A DNA stretch of 64,000 nt from an uncultured virus (IMG/VR IMGVR_UViG_3300032093_000024) (IMGVR_UViG_3300032093_000024), one strand, 5' to 3'; positions 13,030-36,863 are shown, numbered from the stretch's first letter. The notes: a model not told the origin generated them from the sequence alone. Numbers and translations are program-made.

Positions 13030-13037
13030 AATCTATT

Positions 13038-13475
13038 TTACCATTTTCTACAAGACCAATATCTTGCTTTTGTTCTTGGACCAGGATTATCACAATTGTG
13101 TCTTGCTCTAAAATTAGCCCTTCTACCAGGATTATTTTTCTTAATCTTTACACCTTTCTGACCGAAGTTTACTTTTATTACCTTACCAGTCTTTGGGTTT
13201 TTTACATATACCTTAAATTTCTTAACATCACCTGCCATTGGTTTGCCCAACTTTACTTCTCTTCCTTGATATTCAGCTTCATAAACACATCCACAATTAG
13301 CTTCTTCCAAAGAACTTTGATAAGATTTAAGATAGTTTATAAAATCATCCATATCTTCTTGCTCTACATCAAGCTCATCGTAATCATCAATTGGGTTATC
13401 AGCCGGAGTATCACCTTTTGAATACGCCTTATCTATGTATTCATCTTCTTTAAGTATTTGCGATAATTTAATCAT
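13038..13475 (-). CDS. Hypothetical head-associated protein; likely start MIKLSQILKE at 13475
   Basis: C-terminal EAEYQGREVKLGKP..KKFKVYV..FRARHNC..YWSCRKW module. A promoter motif at 13505-13512 lies inside the longer ORF call. Confidence 0.6.
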   Translation of the reverse strand: MIKLSQILKEDEYIDKAYSKGDTPADNPIDDYDELDVEQEDMDDFINYLKSYQSSLEEANCGCVYEAEYQGREVKLGKPMAGDVKKFKVYVKNPKTGKVIKVNFGQKGVKIKKNNPGRRANFRARHNCDNPGPRTKARYWSCRKW

Positions 13476-13504
13476 TTTATTCTCTTTTTGATTTTGACAT
13501 ATAT

Positions 13505-13513
13505 CATAAATAT
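13505..13513 (-). promoter_or_regulatory. Putative late promoter motif ATATTTATG
   Basis: Upstream of the ATG at 13475. Confidence 0.55.
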
Positions 13514-13538
13514 CAATTATTACCAAAACACCTCATTT

Positions 13539-15140: not shown

Positions 15141-15832
15141 TAATCAGTTGGTGGTTTTACTAAATCGTAATTTTTATCTTTTAGTTTTTCCCATGCTTCA
15201 TTTCTTTTTTGATAAGCTATTTTTAATTCTTCTTCAAAAGTATTAATATCCGCCTTAATCTCATTTCTCATTTCATCAGCATCTCTTTCCATTTTCCACT
15301 TTTCAATTTTACCGTCTTCATTTACAATTTCATATTCTTGTTTTACATCTTTAAGAGCTTGTTTAAATTGAGCTATTACTTCTTTACCATATGAAATCAT
15401 ATTTTGAAAGGTTCTAAAATCAGTATATTCCTTCCACAATGAATCTTGCTTAATTTGTAGTTCTTTTTTAGCTAAACATTTTGCACAATAACCGGTTTTA
15501 CTAATTAATTTTTTATCTGCATTACTAATTTTTATAGTATTGCAATCACTAGCCGAACACGTATTTAATTTAGATAAATAATCTCTAACTTCGGACATTG
15601 TATCCGATAATTCATTAATTCTTACTTTTCCAAACTCTTTTTGTTCCCAAATTTTACCATCGGAATCGGTCCATTTCTCTCCTATTTCTTTTTTACGATT
15701 TTTTTCTGCTGATTTTTCCGCATCAGTAAAGGATATTTGTGTATTTTTTTCATACTCTCCTCCAGTTAAAACCATATTTGCCAACTTTCTACGCGTTGGA
15801 TGCATGTATTTTTTTTGAAATTCCTTTGACAT
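15140..15832 (-). CDS. Hypothetical protein with a possible Zn-binding Cys cluster
   Basis: CSASDC..CAKC; translationally coupled to the terminase gene. Confidence 0.5.
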   Translation of the reverse strand: MSKEFQKKYMHPTRRKLANMVLTGGEYEKNTQISFTDAEKSAEKNRKKEIGEKWTDSDGKIWEQKEFGKVRINELSDTMSEVRDYLSKLNTCSASDCNTIKISNADKKLISKTGYCAKCLAKKELQIKQDSLWKEYTDFRTFQNMISYGKEVIAQFKQALKDVKQEYEIVNEDGKIEKWKMERDADEMRNEIKADINTFEEELKIAYQKRNEAWEKLKDKNYDLVKPPTD

Positions 15833-15853
15833 ATTATTTATGATTATTCTAAT

Positions 15854-15862
15854 AATAAGTAT
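15854..15862 (-). promoter_or_regulatory. Putative late promoter variant ATACTTATT
   Basis: Upstream of the ATG at 15832 (terminase operon). Confidence 0.5.
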
Positions 15863-15883
15863 ATCAAAATAAAAAAATTAAAA

Positions 15884-18700
15884 TTAACGAGAATATTTAA
15901 AAATACCTAATATTTGATTGAGAGGTGCAAATGCACCTGTAAGTTTGTATGTATTTCCCCCATAAACGAATACAATACCTTCGTTTGGTACAATTTTATC
16001 AAATCCACCTAAAGCGTTTAAACGGCTTAGTTCTATTTTTAGCTTTTCAATTTTCTTTGGGTCACCACTTGCTTTTATTTGTTTAATAGCGTTTCCTAAT
16101 TCTTTTCTCAATTGTTTAGTTGCATCTGATGGATTTGCTGTTAATACCGATTCCATAAATGATAATACATCCGCTCCCACTCCTAAAAATATTTCTTCAA
16201 ATTTCATAAGATTATCTTTCATAATCTTTTGTTGGTCTTGTTTTTCTATTTTATCAGCCCAAGCTCTTATTTTATCATCCTGTATTTGATTTATACGCAT
16301 TGATTTATCACCAAACGCCCATCTCTTAACCAATCCTATTTTTGAACCAATATCTAACTTTTTTGCATTCTTTTCTACAAAATTAGTCCACCAAGCTTGA
16401 TGGTAATCCGCAACTCCATCGGAATCTGCTAATCCAAACTCTTTTTGAAGTCTATTAATCATTGATATGTATTTACCTTGTAGTTTAGAAAGTTCTTGTG
16501 ATTTAGGTAAAGATTGCATTGGAGGTCCTTGAATTGTATATGTATCCTGAACATCTTTATTAACCTGCTTAATCATTCCAGCTAATATTTTTGCAGCTTC
16601 CTGATTCTCACCAATTACCTCACCTTCTTTATCATATTCAAAAGTACCATGAAACACTAACAGCGGTTGACCATATGGAATTACATTAGAGTTTTGAGGA
16701 TATATTACTTCTAAATTCATAAAACATTTACCATCCTTAAAAATCTTCTTTCTTTGTGGTTCGGATAATGCAGCTATTGCTTTTGAAAGGTCATTCATTG
16801 CAAATGTATAAGCATCGGTTAAAGCACCTCTACCAGCAAATTGTTTTGCAACTTGACCAATAGTCATAGCACCTTCACCCTGATTTTTTGTATGTGATTT
16901 GTTTCTTGCCGCAACTAATCTACCATTTACCCAACTAATTGCCAACGCCTGTCCATCGGTTTTTTCTCTTGCCAAATCCAAATCACCATTTAATGCTCTT
17001 ACTACAATTTGTTTAAGGTCACCAAATGTAAGATTCATCTGAATATCAAACGGGTGATTCATATGACCATATGCTCCACCTTCTAAAAGTAAACCCTCAC
17101 TTAATGGGGTTTCAATTTTGGAAAGTTTACTATAATAATTTGGGTCTTCGTACAAATGGTCTAATGCAATTTCTTTAGCAACTTCTATATCAGTTGTATG
17201 TTCTCTTTCAACAGCATATCCTTTTATAAATTCGTTCTTTAAAGTTTGTGGACTTATCTTATGATGTTTAGCTATATCTGATAATGTCATACCTTTTGCC
17301 AATCCACCAGGTATTTTATCTTCTTTTACTTTAGTATATTCTTCGCTACCATCTTTATCCAATTTAGATTTTAATTTCTTAACATCTTTTGGATTCGGTG
17401 CACCATTGATATATCCACCAGGTAAACTTAAACCAACTCCCGCTCCTCCTGGTAATCCCATCTCACCCATAATCTCATCAACTATTTGATTGATTTCATC
17501 CTCTGATATTAATCCCTCTTTTACAACCTTTATATTTGCTTTACCATCCATTTCGGCCTGTTTTCTTTGTTCTTTTTCTTTTGTGGTCAATGCTTCTTCC
17601 CAACCCAAATCTTTTACTGCTTTTAAGGCATCACCTAACCAGTTTGTGTACGCACGTTTTGCTGTAAATTTCCCAATAGAATCGGTATTTTTAGGTTCTT
17701 GCATAATTGGAAAATTAGTAACCTGATTTCTCGGGTCCATCTCTTTATAGTTTACTAATTCTTTTTCTTTTTTTAATTCGTCAGGTCTATCAACCACATC
17801 ATATCCAATTTTTTTACCTCTTGTTTTAGCCTGATTGTGGTATTGTTTCCAAGATGATGCAAAAGGACCTGTACCATCGTCTGTTTCTATTCTTTCTACG
17901 CCGTTTGCAAATTGAACCGAAATTTCTTTTAGTTGCTCTTTTTTAGGAATTCTAAATGTTACTGCTTTTTTACCATTAATTGTTGGCATTCCATATTCAT
18001 CTTTACTTATAGATTTAACAACTACTTTTTTGTTTTTAAACCTACCCATAAGAATCGTATCACCAACTTTAACGTTAAGTTTAATTTCTTCGTTTATATA
18101 TTCTTTCAGAGATTTTAGTTTCAGAGTAATCATTTTGAATATCTGCTCATCAAACTTTGGGTATGCTTTTAAGAACCCTTTCTTTCTATCTGCAACGCTT
18201 CCTGCACTTAACCAATAACGAACATCAGTACCACTAATTGGATTTGATTGAGCTGGTGCAATATAAACATATCCTCTATCTAAATAACCAGTATCTACTT
18301 TACCCTTATATGGTTTAAAATATTTACCACTTAAACGTGATGAATCCTTTTCACCCACCGCAGTCACAAAGGCTGTGGTATCTGAATCAAATTTGTTTAA
18401 TATTTCTTCTGGAGCGTATGGGTTTTTTATACTTACTATTTTGTTTGATGGAATACCAAACATTTTTTGCATTATAGCCTTTTTCTCTCTAAACCCAAAA
18501 GGAGATTTTTTTGAATCGGTAACATCAGAAGTTCCAATGTACACGCTATCTTTTCCGAACTTCTTAACTAAATGTTCGTATGTGGCAAAGTGCCCTTTGT
18601 GAAATGGTTGAAAGCGGCCTGAATAGACAACAACCACTTTGTCTATCTCAGCCGCTTCTCCCAATATTGTTTCTACTAAAAATTTTGCTAATCCCTTCAT
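15884..18700 (-). CDS. Multidomain protein: HxGH nucleotidyltransferase, small beta domain, DUF5661-like module and C-terminal ligase-like (DUF6267-like) domain
   Basis: GRFQPFHKGH and ISGT; DKIPGGLA..EREHT..EIALDHL.EDP.YY; GGAYGHMNHP..EKTDG..EGIV..YKLTG. Confidence 0.7.
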   Translation of the reverse strand: MKGLAKFLVETILGEAAEIDKVVVVYSGRFQPFHKGHFATYEHLVKKFGKDSVYIGTSDVTDSKKSPFGFREKKAIMQKMFGIPSNKIVSIKNPYAPEEILNKFDSDTTAFVTAVGEKDSSRLSGKYFKPYKGKVDTGYLDRGYVYIAPAQSNPISGTDVRYWLSAGSVADRKKGFLKAYPKFDEQIFKMITLKLKSLKEYINEEIKLNVKVGDTILMGRFKNKKVVVKSISKDEYGMPTINGKKAVTFRIPKKEQLKEISVQFANGVERIETDDGTGPFASSWKQYHNQAKTRGKKIGYDVVDRPDELKKEKELVNYKEMDPRNQVTNFPIMQEPKNTDSIGKFTAKRAYTNWLGDALKAVKDLGWEEALTTKEKEQRKQAEMDGKANIKVVKEGLISEDEINQIVDEIMGEMGLPGGAGVGLSLPGGYINGAPNPKDVKKLKSKLDKDGSEEYTKVKEDKIPGGLAKGMTLSDIAKHHKISPQTLKNEFIKGYAVEREHTTDIEVAKEIALDHLYEDPNYYSKLSKIETPLSEGLLLEGGAYGHMNHPFDIQMNLTFGDLKQIVVRALNGDLDLAREKTDGQALAISWVNGRLVAARNKSHTKNQGEGAMTIGQVAKQFAGRGALTDAYTFAMNDLSKAIAALSEPQRKKIFKDGKCFMNLEVIYPQNSNVIPYGQPLLVFHGTFEYDKEGEVIGENQEAAKILAGMIKQVNKDVQDTYTIQGPPMQSLPKSQELSKLQGKYISMINRLQKEFGLADSDGVADYHQAWWTNFVEKNAKKLDIGSKIGLVKRWAFGDKSMRINQIQDDKIRAWADKIEKQDQQKIMKDNLMKFEEIFLGVGADVLSFMESVLTANPSDATKQLRKELGNAIKQIKASGDPKKIEKLKIELSRLNALGGFDKIVPNEGIVFVYGGNTYKLTGAFAPLNQILGIFKYSR

Positions 18701-18715
18701 ATAGTTACTATACTA

Positions 18716-18724
18716 TATAAATAT
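18716..18724 (-). promoter_or_regulatory. Putative late promoter motif ATATTTATA
   Basis: Upstream of the ATG at 18700. Confidence 0.65.
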
Positions 18725-18730
18725 TTGGGA

Positions 18731-19150
18731 TTACTCTTTTACAACTTTCAATCCACTAGAACCATCTGGCATAGTTTGTTGAGATTGTTGAGATTGTTGT
18801 CTTTGCATCTCAGCCAATTGTTTTCTAGTTGGTGCGCCAGGTTGGTACTGAATAGTTCCATCTTGAATATTGATTCTACCTTGTGGATATTTTTCATCCA
18901 ATCCATCAATAATTTCTCTTAATTGAGAATTTAGTGCTTTAAATTCATCTTCACCCTTTTCTAAAAAGTCATCCATTCTGATGATTTCTTCATTGATTTC
19001 TTTCTTACGAATGTGAATTTGTCCAAACTCTACAATCAAACTTTGAATTTTTTGATTATAATCGTTAATAGAATTTAGAATATCTGCATCTATTTTTGCA
19101 GTTTCTATCGTAATTTGTTGTTGTTGTGGTACATTATCTAAACCTGCCAT
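18731..19150 (-). CDS. Hypothetical coiled-coil protein, paralog of 23692..23949
   Basis: Shares EFGQI..R and KYPQGRINIQDGTI with its paralog. Confidence 0.6.
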   Translation of the reverse strand: MAGLDNVPQQQQITIETAKIDADILNSINDYNQKIQSLIVEFGQIHIRKKEINEEIIRMDDFLEKGEDEFKALNSQLREIIDGLDEKYPQGRINIQDGTIQYQPGAPTRKQLAEMQRQQSQQSQQTMPDGSSGLKVVKE

Positions 19151-19175
19151 AAATTATTGTTTTATTATTTGTATA

Positions 19176-19184
19176 TATAACTAT
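19176..19184 (-). promoter_or_regulatory. Putative late promoter variant ATAGTTATA
   Basis: Upstream of the ATG at 19150. Confidence 0.5.
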
Positions 19185-19193
19185 ATTGTTTTT

Positions 19194-19940
19194 TTATTTT
19201 TCAAACACCGAAACTCCCCTTTTTTTCACAACTTCTCCCGCACAATAGTTTCCCCATTTTATAGATTCTTCTACATCATTAGAACTTAAATACTTTGCAA
19301 CAAATCCTGCTACAAATGTATCACCCGCACCACTTACATCGGCATTATCTATTTTTTTAGTTTTAATTAGATTCCCCTTATACGATGCTCCTTTACCATC
19401 CAACGTTATAATTATTTTTTCGTCTAACCATTCATTTTCTACAATTATATCGTGATTATTTTGTGCCTCAAATCTATTTAATTTTATATATGATATATTT
19501 CTACACCAATCACCCAATGTTTTTTTGGTATCAAGTATGATTAAATGATGTAATTTAGAAATTTCAAATATATCATTTTCGGTTAGAAACCCTTTACAAT
19601 AATCCGAAATAACAACCGCATCAAATTCTGATAAAGGTGGTAGTTCGCTAATATTGATTCTTTTTACTAAATCATTTTCATCTACCCTTAAATAAAGCTC
19701 ATTTGTATCTTTATTTATATATCTGGTTTTAATAATATTTCCTTCACCACAAAAAGTTTTTACTTTTATATCCATTGATTTCAGATTTGCAGCAGTGTTA
19801 GCAGCCATACCCAAATTTACAACCGTTTCAATCGGATTAAAAATAGGACCGTTTCCTTCGGGTGATTTTCTAGTTGATGTCCCATATATGAAAACATCAT
19901 TGCATTTCTCACCAATTACTAAAACTTTATATTTTGACAT
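19194..19940 (-). CDS. PfkB-family heptose-7-phosphate kinase (HldE/RfaE domain I-like)
   Basis: RKSPE, GMAAN, KTRY, LRVD, ISDY.KG and DVSGAGDTF motifs. Confidence 0.85.
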   Translation of the reverse strand: MSKYKVLVIGEKCNDVFIYGTSTRKSPEGNGPIFNPIETVVNLGMAANTAANLKSMDIKVKTFCGEGNIIKTRYINKDTNELYLRVDENDLVKRINISELPPLSEFDAVVISDYCKGFLTENDIFEISKLHHLIILDTKKTLGDWCRNISYIKLNRFEAQNNHDIIVENEWLDEKIIITLDGKGASYKGNLIKTKKIDNADVSGAGDTFVAGFVAKYLSSNDVEESIKWGNYCAGEVVKKRGVSVFEK

Positions 19941-20319
19941 CTCCTAATATTTTTGATGTACTTATATTATTTATTTTTTGAAAAAATTCTATTTTGGGAA
20001 CATATTCCACGCCAATTATTTGATGATATTGATAATCATCACCTATTACCATAACATCTGGCTCCCATTCACGTATTCTATTAATAAGTTCGTCATCCGT
20101 ACCAAAAGATACAACAGAATCAACAAAACGAATAGATGAGATAAAATCCATCCTATCAGAAAGGGTATTAAAAGGTCTTTCCCTACCTTTTTTATCCCTA
20201 ACTCTTTTATCTTCGTCCAATCCAACCCTAACTGAACCAAACTTTGAAGCGTGTTCAAGCAAACGAATATGACCAATATGTACAATATCAAATGTACCAT
20301 TTACCCAAACTTTTTTCAT
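19927..20319 (-). CDS. Heptose-1-phosphate adenylyltransferase-like protein (HldE/RfaE domain II-like)
   Basis: NGTFDIVHIGH, KGRERPFN..DR, G.DY and STSKI motifs. Confidence 0.85.
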   Translation of the reverse strand: MKKVWVNGTFDIVHIGHIRLLEHASKFGSVRVGLDEDKRVRDKKGRERPFNTLSDRMDFISSIRFVDSVVSFGTDDELINRIREWEPDVMVIGDDYQYHQIIGVEYVPKIEFFQKINNISTSKILGDVKI

Positions 20320-21491
20320 TATAAAAACTTTTCCAATTCTTTAATAACCATTTCGGATGTTATTGATTTAGTACATTCAAATTGTCTTTCAGTACCTTTG
20401 TGGTCTGGACACCAATTCCAATCGCCTGGATCAAGTCTTAAACGATTAAAACACCCCTCACATTTTCCTTGCGGTGCTCCTATACGAATACAATCTTCCA
20501 TCTCTGCCCACTTATAAGAAAATCCACTTATTAATACAGTTGGTACATCCAATGCCCAGCTTAACCAACTTAATCCACTACCTATTCCAATAAATGCCTT
20601 TGATTTCAACATTTCATCCATAACTAATTCAATTGGACCATTTGGATGCCTAACTATACCGGAAGGTAATTGATTTCCCATATAGTTCTCACCTTCTTTT
20701 GAAAGTAGTTTTACAATGTAACCTCTATTATTTAACCAGTCTACAATATCCTGCCATCCTGTTGGGTTATTCCAAAATTTTGATTGTGCAGTTCCATGTA
20801 TTCCAATACAAACCTGCTTTAAACCTGATTCTTTGTGGGGATTTCTATCTTTTAATCTTGGTTTTATTTCTCTAAAGTTTAAACCCAATATATCCGAACA
20901 CATTTTTTGCATCGTTTGTTGTTTCGGGTCAATTGGATTTTTATAAACGTTTATTGAACTATCTTCGTTGTAAAATAAACCAATTGCATACATAGCATAT
21001 AAGTTTTCTACAACCATACCCGGTGTAACAAATTCTATATCAGGATATTTTTCTTCAAAAAGATTATTCATAAATGTTGAAACAATCATTTTGGCATTAT
21101 GCAATTTTCCAAATTCTTCTACATACGGCATCCATGCTAAACTATCTCCCAATGCTTTTGAGTCTAATGCCACATAAACTCTTTTATCTCTAGCATCGTA
21201 TAAATGTTCGTACCAAAGTTTATTATCTTGATATATTTCAATTTTCCAATCAATAAAATATTCAACATTACATTTTGTCCACATATTGTTATTGATTTCC
21301 GAACTATACAGTACTGCACCAGTTTTATTATTTATAAACTTTACTAAATATTTTCCTGGTTTCGGGCCTTTTATTTCAACCGTAGCACCTCTTACAAAAT
21401 GTAAAAAAACTTTATTATCTATATTGGCTTTATTATTTACATTTTTAATAATATTTTCATATATATTTTTATTGTAATCCATTAACTCCAA
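20319..21491 (-). CDS. Autotransporter-type O-heptosyltransferase (TibC/Aah, BAHT family)
   Basis: SKALGD.LAW.PY, QSKFWNNP.GW, FIGIGSGLSWLSWA and the iron-finger Cys motif CEGCFN..WCP..QFEC. Confidence 0.85.
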   Translation of the reverse strand: MELMDYNKNIYENIIKNVNNKANIDNKVFLHFVRGATVEIKGPKPGKYLVKFINNKTGAVLYSSEINNNMWTKCNVEYFIDWKIEIYQDNKLWYEHLYDARDKRVYVALDSKALGDSLAWMPYVEEFGKLHNAKMIVSTFMNNLFEEKYPDIEFVTPGMVVENLYAMYAIGLFYNEDSSINVYKNPIDPKQQTMQKMCSDILGLNFREIKPRLKDRNPHKESGLKQVCIGIHGTAQSKFWNNPTGWQDIVDWLNNRGYIVKLLSKEGENYMGNQLPSGIVRHPNGPIELVMDEMLKSKAFIGIGSGLSWLSWALDVPTVLISGFSYKWAEMEDCIRIGAPQGKCEGCFNRLRLDPGDWNWCPDHKGTERQFECTKSITSEMVIKELEKFL

Positions 21492-23653
21492 GTTTTAATT
21501 TGTAAATCTAATAATGAATATCCTTCTGCTTGTTTAGAATACATTTTATTTGTTGTATATCTTTTTTTAGGATGGTGGTAAAATACATGATTAAACCATA
21601 AATCACCTACATCCCAACCACAATCTTTTATTCTATCCATCCACCAACCTTTAGTTCGGTTTGGAATTAAATAACAATGTGCAAGGTCTTGTGCATGTCC
21701 AGTCAAAGTAAATAATTCATCAATTTTAGTTCTTTCTCTAGATGGGTTATTTGCAAATGAAATAAAATAAGCATCATTTAGTTCTGACATAAAACATGCT
21801 TTATTTACCACATCTACAAATTCTTCTAAACCGGTATAGATAAATGCATCCGCTTCAAATATTAAAGTATAATCATAGTTTTCTTCATCAATAGTTTCTA
21901 ATGCGTATCTATGTGCTAGGTAACAACCATAATGTCTTCCAGTCATCCAACCCAATCCGGCACCTGGCCATAGTTCACCGGGTTTATTATCTTTACTAAT
22001 ATGTTCTGGTCTTCTGCAATTTTCAGCAGGTGGGATTCCTTCATATACTTCGTTGATAATTGGTTGATAATCTATCCCATAGTTTTTTAGTTGTTGAAGT
22101 GATTGTATTGAAACTCTTTCTCTCATATCATCGGGTCTAGTCAACATATGTTTCACCTGAATTCTTGGTTTTCTTCTTATAAATGAACGAAATCCTTCTT
22201 GAAACTGCCCATAAAAGAATTCATTAGCAGCTTTTGTTACTCCATTAAATACACCATAATCATCACCTGTAATATATCCGCCCGGTTTAACTTTTTTATA
22301 CCAAACGTTCAAATCTTCCATTAAGGATTCATAAGAATGTCCGGCATCAATCATTATAAAATCTATACTGCTATTTCCGAAATTATTTGATGCATTTTTA
22401 GAAGTATCTTTTATAACATTAAATTGATTATAGTTATTTGATAATACAACATTATCTATAAATTCATAAAAAATATCACCATTAAAACTATTAACTATAT
22501 TTTGATGCAAAGCCTCATCATCAGTACCTTTCCATGTATCTACACTTACAAAATTAATATTTTTTTCCGATTCTCTTATTTTAGTAGCCAAATAGTTAGT
22601 AGATTTACCAAACCAAGCACCTACTTCAACGAACAATGAACCATCTTTAGCTTCATCTACAAAATTATTATACAACTCTTTATACGCAAACCAACCTGGT
22701 ATTTCATTAAATTCTGGTTTTAATTGCTCAAGTATAATTCTTTTTGTAAGTTTTAAATCATCATCAATATACGTTACCAATGGATTATCATCATAGGTAT
22801 TCAAATAAGTGTGAAGTTTTCTAAAAATACAAGGAAGACCATATGATAATGCCTCTTTAACCGATAAAGGATTTAATTCTAATTTTGAAGAAAAATAGAA
22901 AAAATCGCAAGCTTCATAAAATGTATCTACATCATTTCTTTCACCCCATACAATACAATTATCTGGCTTAAAATCCATCAATGGCCTCCAATAATTTTCA
23001 AAATTCATTGCTTGATTACCAACAAAATGAAATTTAATTTTATATTTTTCCAACTGTCTTGCGATGGCAAATATTTCACCTTGATTTTTTCCTTGCGAAA
23101 ACAATCCTACATTTAGAACATGTTTATATGTTGGGTCTAACCCTAATTTATTTTGAGCTTCTTCTTTATTAAAATTATATTTTTCAATAGGGTATTCCCA
23201 AACCGATGTTTCAATGCCTAATGATTCAAATCTTTGTCTACTCCATTCCGATACTAAAACGTACTTATCAGGATGGTAAATGATTTCAGATGGATTTGTT
23301 AATGAACCATGTGTTGTACACACTATAAAATATTTTCTTTCACTTGAAAATAGTTTTTCTACTACATCAATTGGTAAATCATATTCTGGAATTTCCTGAA
23401 AATGAATTATATCAGGATTAAAAGTTCTTATATAATCAAAGATTTGTTTTTTGTTTTCACCCAATGTATGTACGGGTACTAAAGATTTAATCCTATTTTT
23501 TTGAACTACATATGCATCCCCACCACTATTATTGATTTCAATAACCTCAATTTGAAAATCATTTAAGAAATGTTTAATTTGCTTGTAAGTGTATTGGGGT
23601 TGTCCACCAGTAGAAAGGTGTGGACAAACGTATAACAATCTTTTTTTACTCAT
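21482..23653 (-). CDS. Trifunctional GT-B glycosyltransferase / class I SAM methyltransferase / GT25-like glycosyltransferase
   Basis: HLSTGGQP..KNQ..ELNPLSVKEA (GT4-like); VEVGAWFGKS..IDAGHSY..KPGG..GDDY (Methyltransf_24-like); GCYLAH..LIFEADA (GT25-like). Confidence 0.8.
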   Translation of the reverse strand: MSKKRLLYVCPHLSTGGQPQYTYKQIKHFLNDFQIEVIEINNSGGDAYVVQKNRIKSLVPVHTLGENKKQIFDYIRTFNPDIIHFQEIPEYDLPIDVVEKLFSSERKYFIVCTTHGSLTNPSEIIYHPDKYVLVSEWSRQRFESLGIETSVWEYPIEKYNFNKEEAQNKLGLDPTYKHVLNVGLFSQGKNQGEIFAIARQLEKYKIKFHFVGNQAMNFENYWRPLMDFKPDNCIVWGERNDVDTFYEACDFFYFSSKLELNPLSVKEALSYGLPCIFRKLHTYLNTYDDNPLVTYIDDDLKLTKRIILEQLKPEFNEIPGWFAYKELYNNFVDEAKDGSLFVEVGAWFGKSTNYLATKIRESEKNINFVSVDTWKGTDDEALHQNIVNSFNGDIFYEFIDNVVLSNNYNQFNVIKDTSKNASNNFGNSSIDFIMIDAGHSYESLMEDLNVWYKKVKPGGYITGDDYGVFNGVTKAANEFFYGQFQEGFRSFIRRKPRIQVKHMLTRPDDMRERVSIQSLQQLKNYGIDYQPIINEVYEGIPPAENCRRPEHISKDNKPGELWPGAGLGWMTGRHYGCYLAHRYALETIDEENYDYTLIFEADAFIYTGLEEFVDVVNKACFMSELNDAYFISFANNPSRERTKIDELFTLTGHAQDLAHCYLIPNRTKGWWMDRIKDCGWDVGDLWFNHVFYHHPKKRYTTNKMYSKQAEGYSLLDLQIKTWS

Positions 23654-23658: not shown

Positions 23659-23690
23659 CAAATATACAAAATTATTTGGAATTTACCAAA
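23659..23690 (-). promoter_or_regulatory. Bacteroidota primary-sigma-type promoter for the glycosylation operon
   Basis: Minus strand TTTG-N20-TATATTTG, 5 nt upstream of the ATG at 23653. Confidence 0.75.
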
Positions 23691-23691: not shown

Positions 23692-23949
23692 TTATTCTTC
23701 AAAAGTTACAGTACCATCTTGAAGATTTACTTCTCCATTTGGGTATTTTACTTCCAAATCTTTTAGAACTTCATCTAACAAAATTTTGTTTTTTGAAAAT
23801 GTTTCTTCTAATGATTTTTTATAAGCTTTTAAATCTAAAAATCTTACTTCAATTTGTCCTAATTCATAAATCACATCGTTAGAATCGGATTGTAATTTTC
23901 TTAATTTATCTACAATTTCAGCAGATAATTGTTCAGTTTTTTGTGGCAT
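23692..23949 (-). CDS. Hypothetical coiled-coil protein, paralog of 18731..19150 (possible fibre chaperone)
   Basis: ELGQIEVR..KYPNGEVNLQDGTV. Confidence 0.6.
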   Translation of the reverse strand: MPQKTEQLSAEIVDKLRKLQSDSNDVIYELGQIEVRFLDLKAYKKSLEETFSKNKILLDEVLKDLEVKYPNGEVNLQDGTVTFEE

Positions 23950-23984: not shown

Positions 23985-26900
23985 TTATTTTGAACCACTT
24001 ATTGCAGCCTCTAAAGATTCTACTCTTTGACTTAATTCCTGTACAGCTTTCCACAACACAAATACTAATTCTCCTTTATTAATACTTTGTACAACCTTTT
24101 TTTGCGGACCTGTTGGATTTTCTGGATCATCTTCTAACTCATAATCAACCCATTCTTCCAATCCCGCTGCTTCCAATTCTTCTGCAATAATACCAATTTG
24201 TTTTTTTGGATTTTCAAGTTCTTTATCAACATTCCAATAGAAAGTTCTAATAGGAGTTTTATTAATTGATTCAATCAATGATGGATGAGTCCAATCTTTA
24301 ATATCATATTTAAATCTTGCAGAAGAATCAAACCTACACAGCCACCATTGAAATCCACCCGCATCAATTTTAATTTGTACGTCTCTTCTTTCTCCACCAA
24401 GTTGACTGGAACCTGGAATGTTTTTTAATTGAAGTGATGGTCTAGTCTGTCCGCCAGTAGTTATTGCACCTATTGTGCCTTCGTATCCACTATTAGCTAA
24501 GTTCCAAGTAAAAGTATTAACGTCTACAATATTTTGGTTACTCATATCCAACGGCCCATCAACAATTTCTAGTGCTGCTGCCGAAGCATGTGCGTTTTCA
24601 ATTCTCACCGCTGGTACACTTGAGTTGGATGCAACATCTAAAAGTGGAACACTAGTACTTCTTTCAATTTTAACATAGTTATCAATATCTGCTGCTGCTA
24701 AAAATCCATTACCTGCAACATTTACTTGAGAAAGTTGTTTATTAAACGTATTACCGGTATTTATTGACCACGTACCACCAGTAATACTTCCTACTCCACT
24801 ATCTATATAACATTGAACTACACCCCTAACGTGAAAATAATATGTACCAGCAGAAGGTATAGTAACATATACTGGATATCCACTACTTGCATAAAATGCA
24901 CCTTCATCAAATGGTCCACCCAAATTATCAGAGTATCCAACATTAAATGTGTGAATAAGATTTCCTGTAAAATTCGCTGTATCCCAAACTTCTACAAATA
25001 TTTCAAAATACAAATAACCACTAAACGAACCATTTGAATTCATATAAAATGGATTAGCTCCCCACGAAATACTATTCACTTTATATTGTCCAGCCGAAGA
25101 TATAGAAACACCTGTTGTATCTAAAGCGGTTATTTCATTAAGTAGAGGAGATGAACTATTATATGAACCATTCATACTAATACCAGGAATAGTACTCATT
25201 ACGAAACTACCTCCACCGCCACCTACTGCTGGTAAATTAGCTTGTGAAATTTCAATTACTTTTTCATCAGATGTATTATTGACTGTAATGGTTACATCAT
25301 TTGGATTTAATACAATGAATTCATTTACATCTTGTAACTTTCCTTGTTCAACTCTCCAGTTTCCAATTTCAGAAATAACAGTATTATCTGTTACAATTTT
25401 TCCTTTAATTGTTAAGTTTGCATTATCCCAATAAATGTAAGGTAATCCAGAACCAGTAATATTTCCAAATCTAAACTTACCATCATCTTGTAAATAAAAC
25501 CCTGGTCCACCCGCAGGTCCAACTAAAGATGTTGCGTTCGCACTTCTAATTATCCCACCATTAGTACCACTTTGTCCAATAACCAATGAACGATAAATGT
25601 TTGCGTCTTTAGCCAAAAGAATATCAGTAGCTACCGATGCAAAATTGGCCATTGTTTCAAAATATGTAGCGTTAGGAGGGCAACCAGTTGTTCCTTTTGT
25701 TAGTCCATCCGCTGCATTTTTTAAAAGATAGTATGTACCGGATGCTAATGTTACCATTTTAGATGTGGTGTTACTAACCCATACAAAACTAGAATCTAAA
25801 CTGGTGCACTCACCAACAAAACTTATACCAGGTCCTGCGGCTCCATTTGCACCAGCTGCTCCTGCTCTCGATTTTGTTAAAGATTGAACTTTTGTTATTG
25901 AAAAAGAATCTCCATTTAGTTTTTTACCAGCTAATGTATATGTTACAGTTGCCTGGTCAGCAGTCATATTACTATGATTTGCTACTACCGCGTAGTTTCC
26001 ACCATCGGTTATACCGCCGGCAGTTATATTTGAAGTGGCGGTTGAAACGGTAAACTTACCTGCTGCAGTACCAACACCATCATAATCTAATTGTGTTGCA
26101 CCTTCATAAATGTATATATCAGTACCACTTCCTGCATATGAAGAAACCGTACCATCACTAGCCGCTGGTAAAGTATGTGCTTCATTTGTTAAAATTATTG
26201 TTAATGCATCAGTACCTTCTTGCACCCTCGCAACGGTTATAGTGTCTGTTATTGAATCTGCAGTTGCTGTCACTTCAACCAAAGTGTTTGAACCAAAGTC
26301 TGCCTTTCGTAAATAAACTGTGTTACCCGTTGTTGTTACACTACCACCAGTTGCCGAATCATATAGTGTTACGGATGGTGAAGTTGTCCAGCTTGTTGTA
26401 GCGGATATGTTTTGTTTATTTGAAGTAAACTCAATGTAATTTGGAGAAAGTGTACCATTTTGCGCTTCAATAAATACTTGACTAGATGCTTCTAATCTCA
26501 ATAGTTTTGCTGCAATCGGTGCGATTGTCCAAGGACCTGCACCAGGATATCCTGTAGTTACATTTGTGTTATTCGTAGATGTATGGTCTGAATTTGATGT
26601 CCACGTATTTCCGCTATACGTTACTATATCGTTTGTATAATATAAAATACCACTTGCCCACGGCCCCATAATACGTCCTTCATTAACTCCACCAGGCGTT
26701 TGTTTCAATGCTCCTCTTAATATTAATGATGTACCATCCCATGCTAAATAATTTGTTGAAGCACCAACTTTAAAATCATTACCGGTATCATACCAATAAT
26801 TGTTTGCGTTTAAATATAAACCATTGTTAGCACCATTAACACCTCTACCAAGTTTCATTCCGCCGGCGTTCAATAAACCACTTAAAATAAGAGATTCACC

Positions 26901-29900
26901 ATCCCACTTCATAAAATTGTTGCCAGAATAATCTTTTATTGACAATCTACCATAAGTTCCACTAGCCCCTTGCTCATACAATCCCATCCAAATACCTGGT
27001 CTATCATATCCAATGATACCCGTACCGGATGTTCCTGCCGCTCCAGCAGTTGATGGATTATTACTTGTACCACTCGTACCACCAGTACCAACCGTACCAT
27101 GTTGACCAACTGATATGTATGGGTCCGGTCTTCCACCAGCCAAAACTATATTAGCGTATTTAGAAGTATTATTATATGTACCAACATTAATTGTATTTTT
27201 AACATAAGATTCTTCAAATATTGCTATTTTAGCCGCCACAAAGAAATCTTGCTGTCCTAAATACTGCCAGTATGCAGTATCGGTATATGTTGGTGATAAT
27301 GGATTTGTTGGTAATCGTTTACCTACTAATACTGCATTATTATCAAATGTACCCGGTCCTGAACCACTTATAGCAGCCCAATAGTGCGTATCACCTGAAC
27401 TACCTGTTGGGTCTGGAAATATTACTGCATCTCTACGTTGATTTGTTGTTTCTACTGAACCTATGTAATCTTCGGTTTCATTCCATTGACCTCTCATTAC
27501 AATACCAGGTCCGGTATTACCCTCAAACTGAACTGATAAAGATTGTGTTTTATAGAATGTTTGTCTATCTTCACAATTAATTTCATAAACTATTTCACCG
27601 GCAATATTCGTTTCAGGATTGTCCCAAGCAGTAATTCCAGGCATTGTAGCAGGATTTCCATATAACCAACCATATGCTAAACTTATATTATCATTTGCTA
27701 AATGAATATAATTTGGTTTAGATGATACCCTAACTCTACATTGCAATTCATATGACGAAGAACCATACGCATCAATTTTAAGATTTGTAAATGAACCCGA
27801 TTGTTTATGTGCTAATTCATAAGACCCCCTATATGCTCTTATTATATTAGATGTATTTCCTAATTCTATTTCACCAGATACTCTATATACAACACTGGTA
27901 TTATCGTTTTGCATTTGAATATTGTAAGGGGCCGGTTCAGTAAAATTAACTGAAAATGACTGTGTTACAAATTCTGTAGCTCTTGTTGGTGGTCTATTAA
28001 TTGGATTTGTTGCAACTTGATTTGAATATCCCTCAAATTCAACTTTATATACAATTTCACCAGTTTTATTTATTGCTGGTTTTTCCCATCCAATAATATC
28101 TGGCATTGAAGCCGGGTTTGTAAGAATTCTATTAGTTGCCAAAAGTATCCAAGGCGATTTACTATAAATTGATGCCGAAGAAAATCCTAATATACCTAAA
28201 GGTAAACCATCAATACCATTATCGGATGATTGTGGTGCTGGATAATTTCCTGTAATTACATTTTGTAAACTTGAAGTTCCTTTAAATGTTGGTAATTTAA
28301 TTGCAGTTCCTAACGATGATGTTGAAAATAAATCAGCCGTAATTGAAGTGTTTACATTATCAGCTGCAATTTTATATGCATCTGCACCAGATTTTAGACC
28401 ACTAATTGTAATTTGTGCTTCTGCTTTAAATGGAAAACTTGTAATTAAATTTGTACCATCCCAAAAATAAACTTTAAAAGTTTTCTTTTGACCAGGACCA
28501 GGCGTATAAGTGGAATCAATTATTAATTCATCAAAATAATTATTTTGCGCATTTTTATTTGGATAATATCTTGTTTCACCAAGTGGAGTTTCGGTAACAC
28601 CATCATCTTCTATAATATACCAGTCAAATGTATTCGCAGTTCCAGTTAATCCACCTAATTCTAAAGAACCAGTTGTATTGAATGCAGTTGCTCTCAATAC
28701 TATTGGTTCAGCCGGCACAAAGTTTCCACCATCTCTATCGTATGTAATTGTATCGGATGAAGCAACTAATTGTAAAGTCCTAGCGTTTGGTACTGATACA
28801 TTTTTTGTAAATGTTTGAGTACGAGTAAAAACAGATGATGTATATTCGTGTCCACTTCCTAATGCATTTGGATATACTTGAATTGTATATGTTGCACTTG
28901 CCGAAACATATGGATAATCAAATCTATTAAATGTCCCAAACGAACTACTTGCAGAACCAGTTACCAACGAACCAGTTCTTATATTCCAAACATTACCAGT
29001 TCTAGTTTCTATTGAATTTATTTTCCAAGTTCCTGGTAAAGATGATGTATTGTATAATAAGAAATCATCTCCTTCTTTTACAGTTATAGATGTATTTGCA
29101 TTTGCGTATGATGAAACGTATCCAACTTCATCGGCTGGGATTGCCACAGATGTTGGTGATATAACAATTTGTATTGGTGGAGCACCATCTAATACTTTTG
29201 TATAATTTACCACAACACTTGCAGTGTATATAGACGAAGTAAAATACGGATGAATTACTAATGGATATGTAATACTACCACTTAAATTTGTTAAATTTGA
29301 AGATTGAGATACAATAAGTGATGCAGTAAATGGTACACCAAATGATGATGTAAAATGTATATTACCTGCTTTAACGTTTTGTTCTATAATAGAAGAACTT
29401 GCAATATAAAATTGACCATGTGAGAAAAAAGGGTGTGATGCTGCACTTGAGCTAAACGCCAAATATCTAGCACCTTGCTTTAATCGTATATCGGTAATAC
29501 TTGGTTTATAATCATTTACGATACCTCTTGAATTCGCGGCCAAAGTTATTGCAATTGGATTTACTTCAAAAACAATTGTTTCGTCACCAGGTGTACCTTG
29601 AGGAACGATTGTAAATGTTTTATCTACCGAAATTGATGCAGTAGTACTAGATGGTGATGTATATGGTTCGTTATAAGTAAATGTAAATGTTATATTTTTA
29701 CTCTGTGATAAAGGAGAACGAACAACCGAATTTAATGCACCAGCAGGTATAATTCTTTTTGCTTCATCAACTGCTACCACTTTAATAGTTGAATCTACAC
29801 TTTGTGTTGTATAATACAACCAATATTCTGGTACCCAATCTGTATTTAAAGACATTGAAGGAAAAACTTGAAAAGATGCCGTTATTTGGTCAGTTGTACC

Positions 29901-32459
29901 TCTTTTATAAAAAGATGCGGTAGCAAAAGCAAATGTTGGTCTAAAAAATTTCTCGTTTCTCGGGTCAATATTAAATGTATCGGTATTATATGTTACAACA
30001 GGTGTATCTAAACCATCTTGTAAATCTTCAAGTATAATAGATGCCAAAACCGATGCAGAAGTAATATATGCTGGTCCAGATGCTGCCGATTGTGAAGACA
30101 TTAAATAAATGGTTCTTCTCGTGTCAATTGAATCTCTATTAAATGTAGCATTATAATTTATTTCTCCACTACCTAAAGAACCACTTGTTAATCCTTTTAT
30201 AAATTTACTAGAGGAAGCCTTTGCAAGATTAATAAACTTTTCAGGTTCAGTTAGTGGGTTAAGCGATGCAGATAATACGTGCAATTGCTTATCAGGCCAT
30301 CCTTTTTCCGGTTTAGTTAAACTACTTATTTCAATATCATTAACACCATCAATTCTAATTGCCTGAATTTCTAATGATTGTGTACTACTATTTTTAATTT
30401 GAGTTCCTCTGTATGGTCTGATGATGTGATTAACTCCACCAAATCCATCTAATACTCTGCTGAATATAACCGTATCGGTAAACCCTTCAACTTCTCCAGT
30501 AATTTTTACTATCTGAACAGTTTTATCACTTCTTGATCCTGTAAAATGTTGAACTGTCATTGTTGGTGCATCGGATGTGATTCCATCTAATAAACCAGGA
30601 TAACCACCTCCAGAAGTTATTGAGGCGGTATATTCATGTCCAAATAATTCATTACCATCAAAATCAAAAGATTGAGATGTATAGGTTACCGAACCTGTTA
30701 ATAAATTTTTAGTAACACTAAACCCAACAACGGTTGGCGGTACTGGGTTTGAACCCGAATCAAATTGAAATTGTAAAGAACGAGGAGTAAATACTAATCC
30801 TTTTTGTAATTTTTGTAAATTACCACCATTAAAAGTTTTACTTGCTTCAACTAAAACAGGAATGTAATTATTATTAATATCGTAAAATTCAAAACGATAA
30901 TCAAATGTTTCTTCAGGTAAACTTCTTGGTACACTTTGTATAAATGTAATCTCATCAGGAGAATATGCAGTTTCTTGCGATGCTCTTAAACTAACATCCG
31001 AAATATACCAATCATTTCCTTTAACTTCAAAATAAAGTTTTGTATTATTAGATTCTTCTGCTTTAAAATTTGCAGTTATTTGATTCTTTTGTAATAGAGA
31101 ATTATCAGAAGTTATAGTAACAATATTTTTTTCTACCTGTACAGTTTTTGGTGAACCATTTACAGTAGCAATTTTTGAACCACTTAAAAAAGCTCTCAAA
31201 TAATTATTTGCAGAAACTGAACCATCACCAACTCTTGTATTAAAAGTTAGTGTATATTCAATATTTTCAGTAACTCCTAAAGAAGCGGTTGTATAGAAAT
31301 AGTTTGAGTTTGGACTATCTAATTGTACAGAATTATATAAATAATTTTGATTAAAACTAGCAACTATACTATTTGATGATGTGGCCCAATAATTTTTATA
31401 ATTTGTATTATCAAATAGACCATAGAATTCTTCATTCTTAATTTGAGATTCTAAATCTCTTAATATTTCGTTTGATTCTAATCTTATTTCTTGAACAAAT
31501 TGATAATCAGCTAAATCGGATTGCGATTTTCTAAATATTTTTACTCTAGCCACATCACCAATAAATGTTGTTAAATCAGTTAGAACAATTTTAGCAAATG
31601 AACCAGTCAATGCTGTTTTTAAATTATTAACTCCTTCAACATAATTAAAAGATGCGGTATATCCTTCATTTTCAAAATTTGAAACTAAACTATTTTCAGT
31701 ATAAGGATTTGATACCAATACTTCTTTATTATTTAATACACTATCAACATTAAAATTATAACCCAAAGTTGGTGCAAAAATTTGAGTTCCAACAACTGAA
31801 CCCGTCCAATTTGTAGAATCTTCAATTCTTAAAACATAAGTTGCTGGTAAAGTGTAATTAAACAGATACTCACCAATTTTTGGAAATTGTGCAATACCAC
31901 TCATAGAACCAGTCTGCACAACGGTAGTTGTTACATTATTAAAAATTGGTTTTACAATCTCTGAAATAGAAACTTTTGGTCTTCTATAAAATCTTACTTT
32001 ATCTTCGTTTGATAATAATCTATTGACCTGAAAACTTTTCTCCCATTTTACATTATAAACATTTTTCCATTCATCAGGCACATCCCTAACAACACCGCCT
32101 TCTTCAATGTATGTTTTTAGTTCACCTAATATTGTTATTTTTGCAGTACCAATTGGAGTATCCTCGTATATATAAACTGCAACTACTTTAGATGTACCTT
32201 CGTAATATTCAGGTACACCATTACCAGGTTCAAAATATATTGGATTACCTTCTACATCTAATATTTGTATTTTAATTTCGGTAGTTTCTTTTAAATGCTC
32301 ACTACCCTCAATTAAAAATCCATTTTTACCACCTGTAAAAGAATCTTTAAACTCTGTTATTTTAAAATAGGTAGAGTTTGGATTATTATCTACAATGTAT
32401 GTTTGAAATGAAGATAAATTTTGAGTTAGGGTTTCGCCAAATTTTTTAATTACTGCCAT
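23985..32459 (-). CDS. Giant tail fibre / receptor-binding protein with C-terminal intramolecular chaperone (peptidase S74-like)
   Basis: 2824 aa, beta-rich and S/T/G-rich. C-terminal DSSARFKYDIKD..IGIIAEEL..LWKAVQELSQRVESLE. Confidence 0.85.
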   Translation of the reverse strand: MAVIKKFGETLTQNLSSFQTYIVDNNPNSTYFKITEFKDSFTGGKNGFLIEGSEHLKETTEIKIQILDVEGNPIYFEPGNGVPEYYEGTSKVVAVYIYEDTPIGTAKITILGELKTYIEEGGVVRDVPDEWKNVYNVKWEKSFQVNRLLSNEDKVRFYRRPKVSISEIVKPIFNNVTTTVVQTGSMSGIAQFPKIGEYLFNYTLPATYVLRIEDSTNWTGSVVGTQIFAPTLGYNFNVDSVLNNKEVLVSNPYTENSLVSNFENEGYTASFNYVEGVNNLKTALTGSFAKIVLTDLTTFIGDVARVKIFRKSQSDLADYQFVQEIRLESNEILRDLESQIKNEEFYGLFDNTNYKNYWATSSNSIVASFNQNYLYNSVQLDSPNSNYFYTTASLGVTENIEYTLTFNTRVGDGSVSANNYLRAFLSGSKIATVNGSPKTVQVEKNIVTITSDNSLLQKNQITANFKAEESNNTKLYFEVKGNDWYISDVSLRASQETAYSPDEITFIQSVPRSLPEETFDYRFEFYDINNNYIPVLVEASKTFNGGNLQKLQKGLVFTPRSLQFQFDSGSNPVPPTVVGFSVTKNLLTGSVTYTSQSFDFDGNELFGHEYTASITSGGGYPGLLDGITSDAPTMTVQHFTGSRSDKTVQIVKITGEVEGFTDTVIFSRVLDGFGGVNHIIRPYRGTQIKNSSTQSLEIQAIRIDGVNDIEISSLTKPEKGWPDKQLHVLSASLNPLTEPEKFINLAKASSSKFIKGLTSGSLGSGEINYNATFNRDSIDTRRTIYLMSSQSAASGPAYITSASVLASIILEDLQDGLDTPVVTYNTDTFNIDPRNEKFFRPTFAFATASFYKRGTTDQITASFQVFPSMSLNTDWVPEYWLYYTTQSVDSTIKVVAVDEAKRIIPAGALNSVVRSPLSQSKNITFTFTYNEPYTSPSSTTASISVDKTFTIVPQGTPGDETIVFEVNPIAITLAANSRGIVNDYKPSITDIRLKQGARYLAFSSSAASHPFFSHGQFYIASSSIIEQNVKAGNIHFTSSFGVPFTASLIVSQSSNLTNLSGSITYPLVIHPYFTSSIYTASVVVNYTKVLDGAPPIQIVISPTSVAIPADEVGYVSSYANANTSITVKEGDDFLLYNTSSLPGTWKINSIETRTGNVWNIRTGSLVTGSASSSFGTFNRFDYPYVSASATYTIQVYPNALGSGHEYTSSVFTRTQTFTKNVSVPNARTLQLVASSDTITYDRDGGNFVPAEPIVLRATAFNTTGSLELGGLTGTANTFDWYIIEDDGVTETPLGETRYYPNKNAQNNYFDELIIDSTYTPGPGQKKTFKVYFWDGTNLITSFPFKAEAQITISGLKSGADAYKIAADNVNTSITADLFSTSSLGTAIKLPTFKGTSSLQNVITGNYPAPQSSDNGIDGLPLGILGFSSASIYSKSPWILLATNRILTNPASMPDIIGWEKPAINKTGEIVYKVEFEGYSNQVATNPINRPPTRATEFVTQSFSVNFTEPAPYNIQMQNDNTSVVYRVSGEIELGNTSNIIRAYRGSYELAHKQSGSFTNLKIDAYGSSSYELQCRVRVSSKPNYIHLANDNISLAYGWLYGNPATMPGITAWDNPETNIAGEIVYEINCEDRQTFYKTQSLSVQFEGNTGPGIVMRGQWNETEDYIGSVETTNQRRDAVIFPDPTGSSGDTHYWAAISGSGPGTFDNNAVLVGKRLPTNPLSPTYTDTAYWQYLGQQDFFVAAKIAIFEESYVKNTINVGTYNNTSKYANIVLAGGRPDPYISVGQHGTVGTGGTSGTSNNPSTAGAAGTSGTGIIGYDRPGIWMGLYEQGASGTYGRLSIKDYSGNNFMKWDGESLILSGLLNAGGMKLGRGVNGANNGLYLNANNYWYDTGNDFKVGASTNYLAWDGTSLILRGALKQTPGGVNEGRIMGPWASGILYYTNDIVTYSGNTWTSNSDHTSTNNTNVTTGYPGAGPWTIAPIAAKLLRLEASSQVFIEAQNGTLSPNYIEFTSNKQNISATTSWTTSPSVTLYDSATGGSVTTTGNTVYLRKADFGSNTLVEVTATADSITDTITVARVQEGTDALTIILTNEAHTLPAASDGTVSSYAGSGTDIYIYEGATQLDYDGVGTAAGKFTVSTATSNITAGGITDGGNYAVVANHSNMTADQATVTYTLAGKKLNGDSFSITKVQSLTKSRAGAAGANGAAGPGISFVGECTSLDSSFVWVSNTTSKMVTLASGTYYLLKNAADGLTKGTTGCPPNATYFETMANFASVATDILLAKDANIYRSLVIGQSGTNGGIIRSANATSLVGPAGGPGFYLQDDGKFRFGNITGSGLPYIYWDNANLTIKGKIVTDNTVISEIGNWRVEQGKLQDVNEFIVLNPNDVTITVNNTSDEKVIEISQANLPAVGGGGGSFVMSTIPGISMNGSYNSSSPLLNEITALDTTGVSISSAGQYKVNSISWGANPFYMNSNGSFSGYLYFEIFVEVWDTANFTGNLIHTFNVGYSDNLGGPFDEGAFYASSGYPVYVTIPSAGTYYFHVRGVVQCYIDSGVGSITGGTWSINTGNTFNKQLSQVNVAGNGFLAAADIDNYVKIERSTSVPLLDVASNSSVPAVRIENAHASAAALEIVDGPLDMSNQNIVDVNTFTWNLANSGYEGTIGAITTGGQTRPSLQLKNIPGSSQLGGERRDVQIKIDAGGFQWWLCRFDSSARFKYDIKDWTHPSLIESINKTPIRTFYWNVDKELENPKKQIGIIAEELEAAGLEEWVDYELEDDPENPTGPQKKVVQSINKGELVFVLWKAVQELSQRVESLEAAISGSK

Positions 32460-36857: not shown

Positions 36858-36863
36858 TTATTA

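Follow-up and report, generated by a model that had tools for sequence, protein, structure and literature searches.

A predicted TibC-like glycosylation cassette in a large freshwater phage and its candidate collagen-like fibre acceptors

The DNA described here, called the window, is a whole stretch of 64,000 nucleotides from an uncultured virus (IMG/VR IMGVR_UViG_3300032093_000024). It is part of a large T4-like phage, and the genes of interest called in it all lie on the minus strand. The subject of this work is a cassette of four intact, overlapping open reading frames (ORFs), predicted to glycosylate proteins, for which repeat-rich phage fibres are the candidate acceptors. The ORFs overlap by 1, 1 and 14 bases and follow one promoter-like site, as an earlier note on this DNA had described. 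The features of the cassette, with the evidence for each in brackets, are:

23659..23690, minus strand: promoter-like site of the Bacteroidota sigma-A type, TTTG-N20-TATATTTG, directly 5' of the first gene
21482..23653, minus strand: 723-residue fusion of GT4, methyltransferase and GT25 domains (Pfam matches, motif conservation, model)
20319..21482, minus strand: 387-residue TibC/Aah-like putative protein O-glycosyltransferase (TIGR04414, 4RAP match, model)
20373..20462, minus strand: iron-finger cysteines C341, C344, C358 and C370 (alignment to TibC C339/342/358/370)
20622..20624, minus strand: Val287, replacing TibC Arg286 (sequence alignment)
19927..20319, minus strand: 130-residue HldE-II/HldC-like nucleotidyltransferase of the phage-type short form (TIGR02199, phrog_7878)
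19194..19940, minus strand: 248-residue HldE-I/HldA-like PfkB kinase (TIGR02198, PDB 4E84)

For the transferase, the most probable start codon is the ATG at 21482, which overlaps the upstream stop codon and gives 387 residues, as in database protein P0001. The earlier note had placed a gene at 20319..21491; the gene is there, but its proposed start, the TTG at 21491, is the less likely one.

Setting and expression of the cassette

The window carries a terminase (13539-15140, profile match) together with portal, major capsid and baseplate genes, which were assigned by reading ORFs. Among cultured phages, the closest terminases are those of Flavobacterium phage immuto (56.6%) and of a record titled Microcystis phage Mel-JY01 (55.8%), and the sequencing runs tied to the window are lake-water samples. 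IMG/VR contig G002 (91 kb, 52% complete) shows 99.5% identity to window positions 1-6871 and 100% to 10322-20964, and it extends about 70 kb past window position 1. It is treated here as a near-identical strain of the window phage, and the two together represent about 134 kb of an incomplete genome. The nearest record is G001 (61 kb), and G008 is a complete relative of 266 kb. The phage belongs to an abundant freshwater group, with at least 579 viral contig matches.

The upstream TTTG box of the promoter-like site is presumably a sigma-A promoter element. Of 66 distinct upstream regions from cassette relatives, 62 have the sequence TAnnTTTG, which is the flavobacterial sigma-A -7 box (PMC9723704, in part; sources so marked were consulted in part), no more than 50 bases from the start. 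By itself the sigma-A-type pattern is weak (10 window matches versus 5 expected); among the window genes listed, the TAnnTTTG box precedes just two others, encoding the primase and a DNA methyltransferase. Another motif, TATTTAT, which we infer to be a late motif, precedes 13 window genes, including that of the adjacent 2824-residue fibre, and a scan of the window for sigma-70 promoters and terminators gave no more than chance level. The promoter-like site supports a Bacteroidota host and a single transcript for the cassette. It also suggests early expression, which would be compatible with priming ahead of fibre synthesis or with a host-directed role. A late-type motif also lies 5' of an 85-residue gene upstream of the cassette and could add read-through into it.

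In close relatives the position of the cassette between fibre and head genes is constant, and in more distant phages the transferase adjoins other genes. Two small related proteins (window 23692-23949 and 18731-19150, minus strand) bracket the cassette in the close clade; for the first of them, the 85-residue protein, the Atlas returned viral hypothetical clusters only, with no name. A 938-residue protein (window 15884-18700, minus strand), with an N-terminal cytidylyltransferase/NadM-like domain and DUF5661, comes after the cassette in almost every close relative, with a highly variable length. One relative has an HldD-like epimerase gene upstream of its cassette. Accessory inserts near relatives' cassettes include an HldD-like epimerase fused to GT2, a cupin and radical SAM/SPASM genes (L121 298-1887; L184 3647-3970; L011 939-2936; L177 6394-7464), and the cupin insert sits between transferase and nucleotidyltransferase.

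The transferase and its partner enzymes

The transferase scores 281.1 bits on TIGR04414, whose curated cut-off is 200, which supports its earlier assignment to the bacterial autotransporter heptosyltransferase family; its match to TibC (4RAP) has an E-value of 4e-54. The AlphaFold model, with a predicted local distance difference test score (pLDDT) of 83, has a template modelling (TM) score of 0.80 to TibC 4RAP, including the N-terminal barrel and the GT-B fold, and scores of 0.43-0.50 to heptosyltransferases of lipopolysaccharide (LPS). Residues D113, T231, K235 and W306, equivalent to D110, T226, K230 and W305 of TibC, are invariant in 101 of 101 viral homologues. The same is true of the four cysteines of the iron finger, a feature predicted from sequence; the motif is intact, as first reported, and spans exactly 20462-20373. 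The thumb is 3 residues shorter than that of TibC, and its hydrophobic tip (Tyr267-Met268) and Phe368 are retained.

The closest known systems are TibC/TibA and Aah/AIDA-I of E. coli (TIGR04414; 4RAP, 4RB4; PMC4358343, in part), which the phage enzyme resembles in full-length homology, fold, N-terminal barrel, catalytic Asp, Thr226, Lys230, Trp305, the four cysteines, the hydrophobic thumb tip and Phe368. It differs from them in being phage-encoded, in belonging to a sister branch, in carrying Val for Arg286 and a shorter thumb, in having no autotransporter partner, and in its coupling to GT4, methyltransferase and GT25 domains and an optional HldE pair. TibC targets serines, including those of short synthetic peptides (PMC4358343, in part). 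In agreement with the earlier note, no cognate autotransporter was found in the window: autotransporter-type repeats, counted with a heuristic pattern made for this analysis, number at most 2 per window ORF and at most 3 per G002 ORF. Since two defining features fail, namely Arg286 and the autotransporter partner, the enzyme is filed as a sister variant of the TibC family rather than as a bacterial autotransporter heptosyltransferase proper. In Mel-JY01 (PP395634, L027 4750-8430) the transferase lies inside a 1227-residue fusion annotated merely as FkbM methyltransferase.

The 723-residue protein contains, as previously described, two glycosyltransferase domains around a methyltransferase: a GT4-type domain (about residues 1-312; Glycos_transf_1, E 4e-11), a MycF/NovP-type sugar O-methyltransferase (about 313-493; Methyltransf_24, E 2e-18; TylF, E 5e-7) and a GT25-like domain (about 494-723), for which the Glyco_transf_25 match is weak (E 8e-4) and below cut-off. 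Its motifs are conserved across 82 relatives. The AlphaFold model is of low confidence (mean pLDDT 62), with MycF as top fold match and SpnH, NovP and BshA lower, and a PDB sequence search with the fusion alignment returned BshA only. In six relatives the transferase carries the GT4 domain as a fusion, and in several more the two are neighbours; the other two domains vary.

The nucleotidyltransferase matches phrog_7878 (E 3e-34) and can be aligned with bacterial HldC at the HxGH, KG..RP, GDDY and STS motifs. It lacks the STTR5 arginine, having Ile there; this arginine has been linked to wider nucleotide use (PMC11461863). In a PDB search ethanolamine-phosphate cytidylyltransferase slightly outscores 5X9Q. 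The best PDB match of the kinase is heptose-7-phosphate kinase 4E84. In an alignment with five bacterial HldE-I enzymes, on whose reading the motif names are based, the kinase retains RxSPE, KTR, DYxKG, NxxE and DVSGAGDT, has GNGPI in place of APVPV after SPE, and lacks an internal segment of about 26 residues. The nearest named relatives of both proteins form the cyanophage pair of S-SM2, S-CAM1 and P-SSM2 (T4-GC 304/305; phrog_7878, phrog_8133), which has the same short forms at 32-42% identity (42% for the S-SM2 kinase), with an identical internal deletion in the kinase. These cyanophages differ in having no TibC-like gene. In S-SM2, two genes annotated as "phosphoheptose isomerase" (L192 14975-15286 and 16616-16945) encode 103-109 residues with a weak HAD phosphatase match and may be GmhB-like.

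The supply of heptose appears to be shared with the host. Among 100 close-clade loci, counted in six frames with five contigs entered twice and near-identical strains unmerged, both HldE-like genes are present in 49, where the pair is inserted straight behind the transferase, and the nucleotidyltransferase only in 10. An ORF-based split merged at 95% identity (n=62) gave 34 with both, 5 with the nucleotidyltransferase only, 22 with neither and 1 mixed. Searches for GmhA came back empty for G002, Mel-JY01, the complete G008 and five other large genomes; none of six complete or near-complete phage genomes with the transferase yielded it. Nor did the five records searched for a GmhB-type phosphatase yield one; G008 has neither. 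SIS_2 had no match in G002, and TIGR01656 none in G001 or G002, with the ORFs of the window itself scanned in part against family libraries.

The host sample consisted of 121 Bacteroidota genomes, from the phylum of a Flavobacteriales metagenome-assembled genome (MAG). Strong HldE-I matches occur in 78 of them (61 above cut-off), HldE-II matches in 78 (76 above cut-off) and strong GmhA matches in 85 (13 above cut-off), so that about two-thirds of sampled Bacteroidota appear to carry the heptose pathway. These counts do not support the earlier suggestion that the phage makes its own heptose because Bacteroidota lack it. Since HldE and GmhA are common in the sample, the host probably makes adenosine diphosphate (ADP)-heptose, and the phage kinase and nucleotidyltransferase would act as a booster. 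A model in which the beta-heptose branch is absent from the host and exactly the two missing steps come from the phage was rejected, as most sampled Bacteroidota have both.

Repeat fibres and bacterial counterparts

Two giant fibres with (Gly-Ser/Thr-Ser)n tracts, practically free of proline, are encoded in G002 at 16-37 kb beyond the window. They are listed here with the related features of the window:

G002 43807-54348: 3513-residue fibre with a Gly-Ser/Thr-Ser tract; residues 2315-3354 contain 34% Gly, 567 Ser/Thr and 3 Pro
G002 33145-41763: 2872-residue S74 fibre with a Gly-Ser/Thr-Ser tract; 262 Ser/Thr in 568 residues
1862..2167, minus strand: 101-residue protein with five Gly-X-Ser triplets, the only run of at least four such triplets in the window
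23985..32459, minus strand: adjacent 2824-residue fibre with a C-terminal S74 chaperone (Peptidase_S74, E 7e-8)

In the 3513-residue fibre, Gly-X-Y runs cover 97% of residues 2315-3354, the longest having 94 triplets, and the protein matches Pfam Collagen with an E-value of 3e-102. The fibre repeats use all synonymous codons and are therefore repeats of protein rather than products of DNA slippage. The tract could form a triple helix, a polyproline-II bundle or a flexible linker. Glycosylated threonine has been named as one means of stabilising collagen (PMC3368898, in part). The E. coli prophage protein EPclA is similar in having Gly at every third position of a phage tail protein; it has many Pro and charged residues and is unglycosylated, whereas the tracts of the window phage consist almost only of Gly, Ser and Thr (PMC3368898, in part). 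A 4363-residue protein (G002 55368-68459) adjoins the repeat fibres and has no convincing Pfam match in the 3819 residues scanned. The annotation of Mel-JY01 covers its repeat fibre (L027 1-3052) mostly with hypothetical genes placed on the other strand.

The transferase and the repeat occur together in phages. In the forward direction, repeats are present in the transferase carriers G008, G009, G011, G007, Mel-JY01 and LR756501, and no repeat was found in four partial contigs (G003, G005, G006 and G010). The three transferase-free phages used as controls, immuto_2-6A and the cyanophages S-SM2 and P-SSM2, yielded no repeat. For the converse, a repeat-pattern scan gave at least 157 stretches; 80 loci were listed, 20 contigs of at least 89 kb were picked and 15 were examined, the records being picked solely on eight Gly-Ser/Thr-Ser-type triplets. 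TIGR04414 scored above cut-off in 10 of these 15 viral records, among them all 4 phage records with a completeness of 90% or more. As background, any TIGR04414 match occurs in 4 of 50,697 GenBank phage records. The 735-kb phage LR756501 (L193) has 1639 three-triplet repeat matches, far above any other record searched.

Bacterial homologues show a similar association. The best 80 of 153 confirmed matches in the genome collection and two plasmid loci were included, and the tree kept 69 of 105 rows. It has two branches, one linked to autotransporters and one that contains every phage sequence, and the split scores 100 in the Shimodaira-Hasegawa-like approximate likelihood ratio test (SH-aLRT). 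Of the 41 loci in the phage-like branch, 30 have a Gly-Ser/Thr-Ser repeat at most 8 kb away and 28 at most 2 kb away; several of the 41 resemble phage contigs inside MAGs. In the autotransporter-type branch this repeat occurs in 0 of 41 loci and autotransporter-type repeats in 26, typical partners having 8-47 of them. The bacterial repeat partners are short, mostly with signal-peptide or lipoprotein-like starts, and eight of them, when tested, shared nothing with phage proteins outside the repeat. Three bacterial groups, named from an earlier tree, do not form one clade (approximately unbiased (AU) test, p 0.006). In one bacterial order sampled by 101 genomes, the enzyme occurs in 3, and its two phage-type representatives adjoin a repeat. 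Methylococcales, Polaromonas-like bacteria, Oxalobacteraceae and Arenicellales (L033-L070, L096) have a phage-type transferase beside short (Gly-Thr/Ser-Ser)n proteins, most of which look secreted.

Two further observations concern other parts of the genome. A single 1050-residue ORF (window 32712-35864, minus strand) joins an SbcD-like phosphoesterase to a Rad50/SbcC-like ATPase. Additionally, G002 (1-3046 of L028) has an asparagine-synthase-like amidotransferase, an acetyltransferase and an unassigned 361-residue gene after a sigma-A-type promoter, possibly a DNA-modification cluster.

Proposed function, alternatives and implications

The favoured interpretation, held with moderate confidence, is that the cassette O-glycosylates, and probably heptosylates, the phage's own proline-poor (Gly-Ser/Thr-Ser)n collagen-like fibres in the host cytoplasm. 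What was observed is the identity of the genes, the fold, the conserved motifs, the promoter-like site and the co-occurrence; the donor, glycan and activity are predicted and would combine as follows. The promoter of host-polymerase type, judged from its motif, would supply the enzymes before or during fibre synthesis. GmhA and GmhB would come from the host, and the optional phage kinase and nucleotidyltransferase would top up the pool of nucleoside diphosphate (NDP)-heptose. The TibC-like enzyme, whose activity is suggested by its conserved catalytic residues and whose acceptor is suggested by co-occurrence, would add the first sugar, most likely heptose, to repeat serines. From their families, the GT4 and GT25 domains may lengthen the sugar, and the methyltransferase may cap the glycan.

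Several observations weigh against this interpretation. The candidate target fibres are known from the near-identical contig G002 and not from the window itself. The promoter is host-type, unlike that of the fibre genes, and also fits a host-directed role. The nucleotidyltransferase and the kinase have as best models those of HldE-II and HldE-I, as the earlier note proposed, though far under their cut-offs: 97.6 bits on TIGR02199 (cut-off 181.5; TagD model 62) and 95.3 bits on TIGR02198 (cut-off 345). The HldE-like pair is wholly missing in 41 of the 100 transferase loci, which, together with the negative search for gmhA and gmhB in G002, speaks against the earlier claim that the phage is self-sufficient in nucleotide-heptose. 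The transferase was not found in 5 of the 15 repeat-selected records (four incomplete phage contigs and one giant-virus bin), and LR756504 (636 kb) has the transferase with the repeat pattern unmatched. The co-occurrence in phages partly reflects shared ancestry. In the sampled order of 101 genomes, 8 of 10 repeat-matching genomes lack the enzyme; most such enzyme-free matches resemble plain 9-base DNA repeats, and G227 and G193 resemble protein repeats. Moreover, by sequence alignment, the residue that corresponds to Arg286 is Val in 98 of the 101 viral homologues, with Arg at this position in none.

The last point bears on the donor. Arg286 of TibC contacts adenine and is tied to ADP specificity, and its mutation cripples the enzyme (PMC4358343, in part); the equivalent is Arg in 41 of 41 autotransporter-type bacterial enzymes. 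Because it is Val here, the donor of the transferase, ADP-linked or other, is uncertain, and ADP-heptose is less safe than the earlier note had stated. The same fibres could thus be glycosylated from heptose on another nucleotide or from another sugar, which we regard as unlikely, though it is the best of the alternatives. The replacement of Arg286 in all 101 viral homologues would fit it, as would an HldE pair that is optional and divergent, and viral and other HldE-type enzymes sometimes yield cytidine or uridine diphosphate-heptose (PMC11461863). Against it, W305, T226 and K230, which contact heptose and phosphate, do not vary, the HldE pair stands directly behind the transferase in about half of the loci, the arginine survives in some of the more distant repeat-linked enzymes of phages and bacteria, and the nucleotidyltransferase lacks the STTR5 arginine tied to wider nucleotide use. 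A link between Arg286 loss and the phage nucleotidyltransferase was rejected, as the arginine is equally lost in loci without that gene. The Gly at the TibC Pro300 position is uninformative because the search pattern itself selected for it.

It is rather improbable that the cassette instead remodels the host surface early, through LPS or host glycoproteins, for example to block other phages. Its host-type promoter, common to primase, helicase-like and DNA methyltransferase genes, is consistent with this, as are the GT4, GT25 and HldE families, which normally act in LPS synthesis, and the presence of the same kinase and nucleotidyltransferase pair in transferase-free cyanophages; LPS modification has been proposed for P-SSM2 (PMC1079782, in part). 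The enzyme, however, has the whole TibC architecture and is distant from LPS heptosyltransferases by TM score, tracks repeat proteins in phages and bacteria, and lies in a locus fixed between fibre and head genes in close relatives.

Glycosylation of the adjacent 2824-residue fibre or the capsid through TibA-like strand-loop serines, as the earlier note envisaged, is improbable. This fibre lies upstream of the cassette in most close relatives, contains 20% Ser/Thr and has short Gly-Thr-Ser patches; its G-S/T-S/T-G patches are four only, and some orthologues have 5-9 such triplets. The low count of autotransporter-type repeats per window ORF, set against the 8-47 of typical bacterial partners, argues against such acceptors, as do the other genes beside the transferase in more distant phages. 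Virion-protein glycosylation stands as the leading function, with the distant fibres and their hundreds of Gly-Ser/Thr-Ser triplets as its likely targets and the adjacent fibre as context and a minor acceptor at most. Finally, modification of another target, for instance DNA or a small molecule, with a repeat link due to shared ancestry, is very improbable: phage glycosyltransferases are known to modify DNA (PMC12619734, in part) and LR756504 has the enzyme without repeats, but three bacterial groups that together make up no single clade put the enzyme beside unrelated repeat proteins.

A wider proposal is advanced only tentatively. Aquatic phages may widely build proline-free 'glyco-collagen' fibres, in which TibC-like heptose priming of hundreds of serines per chain would be followed by extension and methylation, and sugars would take over the stabilising or shielding job of proline. 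The same pair would act on bacterial secreted proteins and lipoproteins, the adhesin systems would be one branch, and the donor might be a non-ADP one.

Previous work offers partial parallels. Viral heptose enzymes are known (PMC11461863), and their role has been called unsolved (PMC11573728); relative to the viral NDP-heptose enzymes of Tang et al. 2024 (in part), the HldE pair here sits behind a putative protein glycosyltransferase. Mycobacteriophage virion glycosylation (Freeman et al. 2023, cited in PMC12619734, in part) is alike in that phage glycosyltransferases act on virion proteins. Its targets are C-termini of capsid and tail-tube proteins, whereas internal repeats with hundreds of sites and a TibC-like priming enzyme are proposed here. 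Four core glycosyltransferases were described in large Bacteroidota phages, with heptose unmentioned in the part consulted (PMC12619734), and heptosyltransferase I in one huge phage (PMC10747093, in part). A literature search that left most subscription journals and supplementary tables outside its reach found no paper on a phage TibC-like enzyme or such fibre glycosylation, and none on Mel-JY01.

The cassette offers a testable answer to the published open question of what viruses do with heptose-activating enzymes (PMC11573728). Mel-JY01 is a cultured carrier on record, which places a test within reach, and the bacterial version of the enzyme-repeat pair would be easier to test. If the favoured interpretation is true, phage virion glycosylation would reach past mycobacteriophages to an abundant freshwater group, and the TibC family would gain a second class of acceptors in the form of a simple (Gly-Thr-Ser)n tag, with environmental bacteria included.

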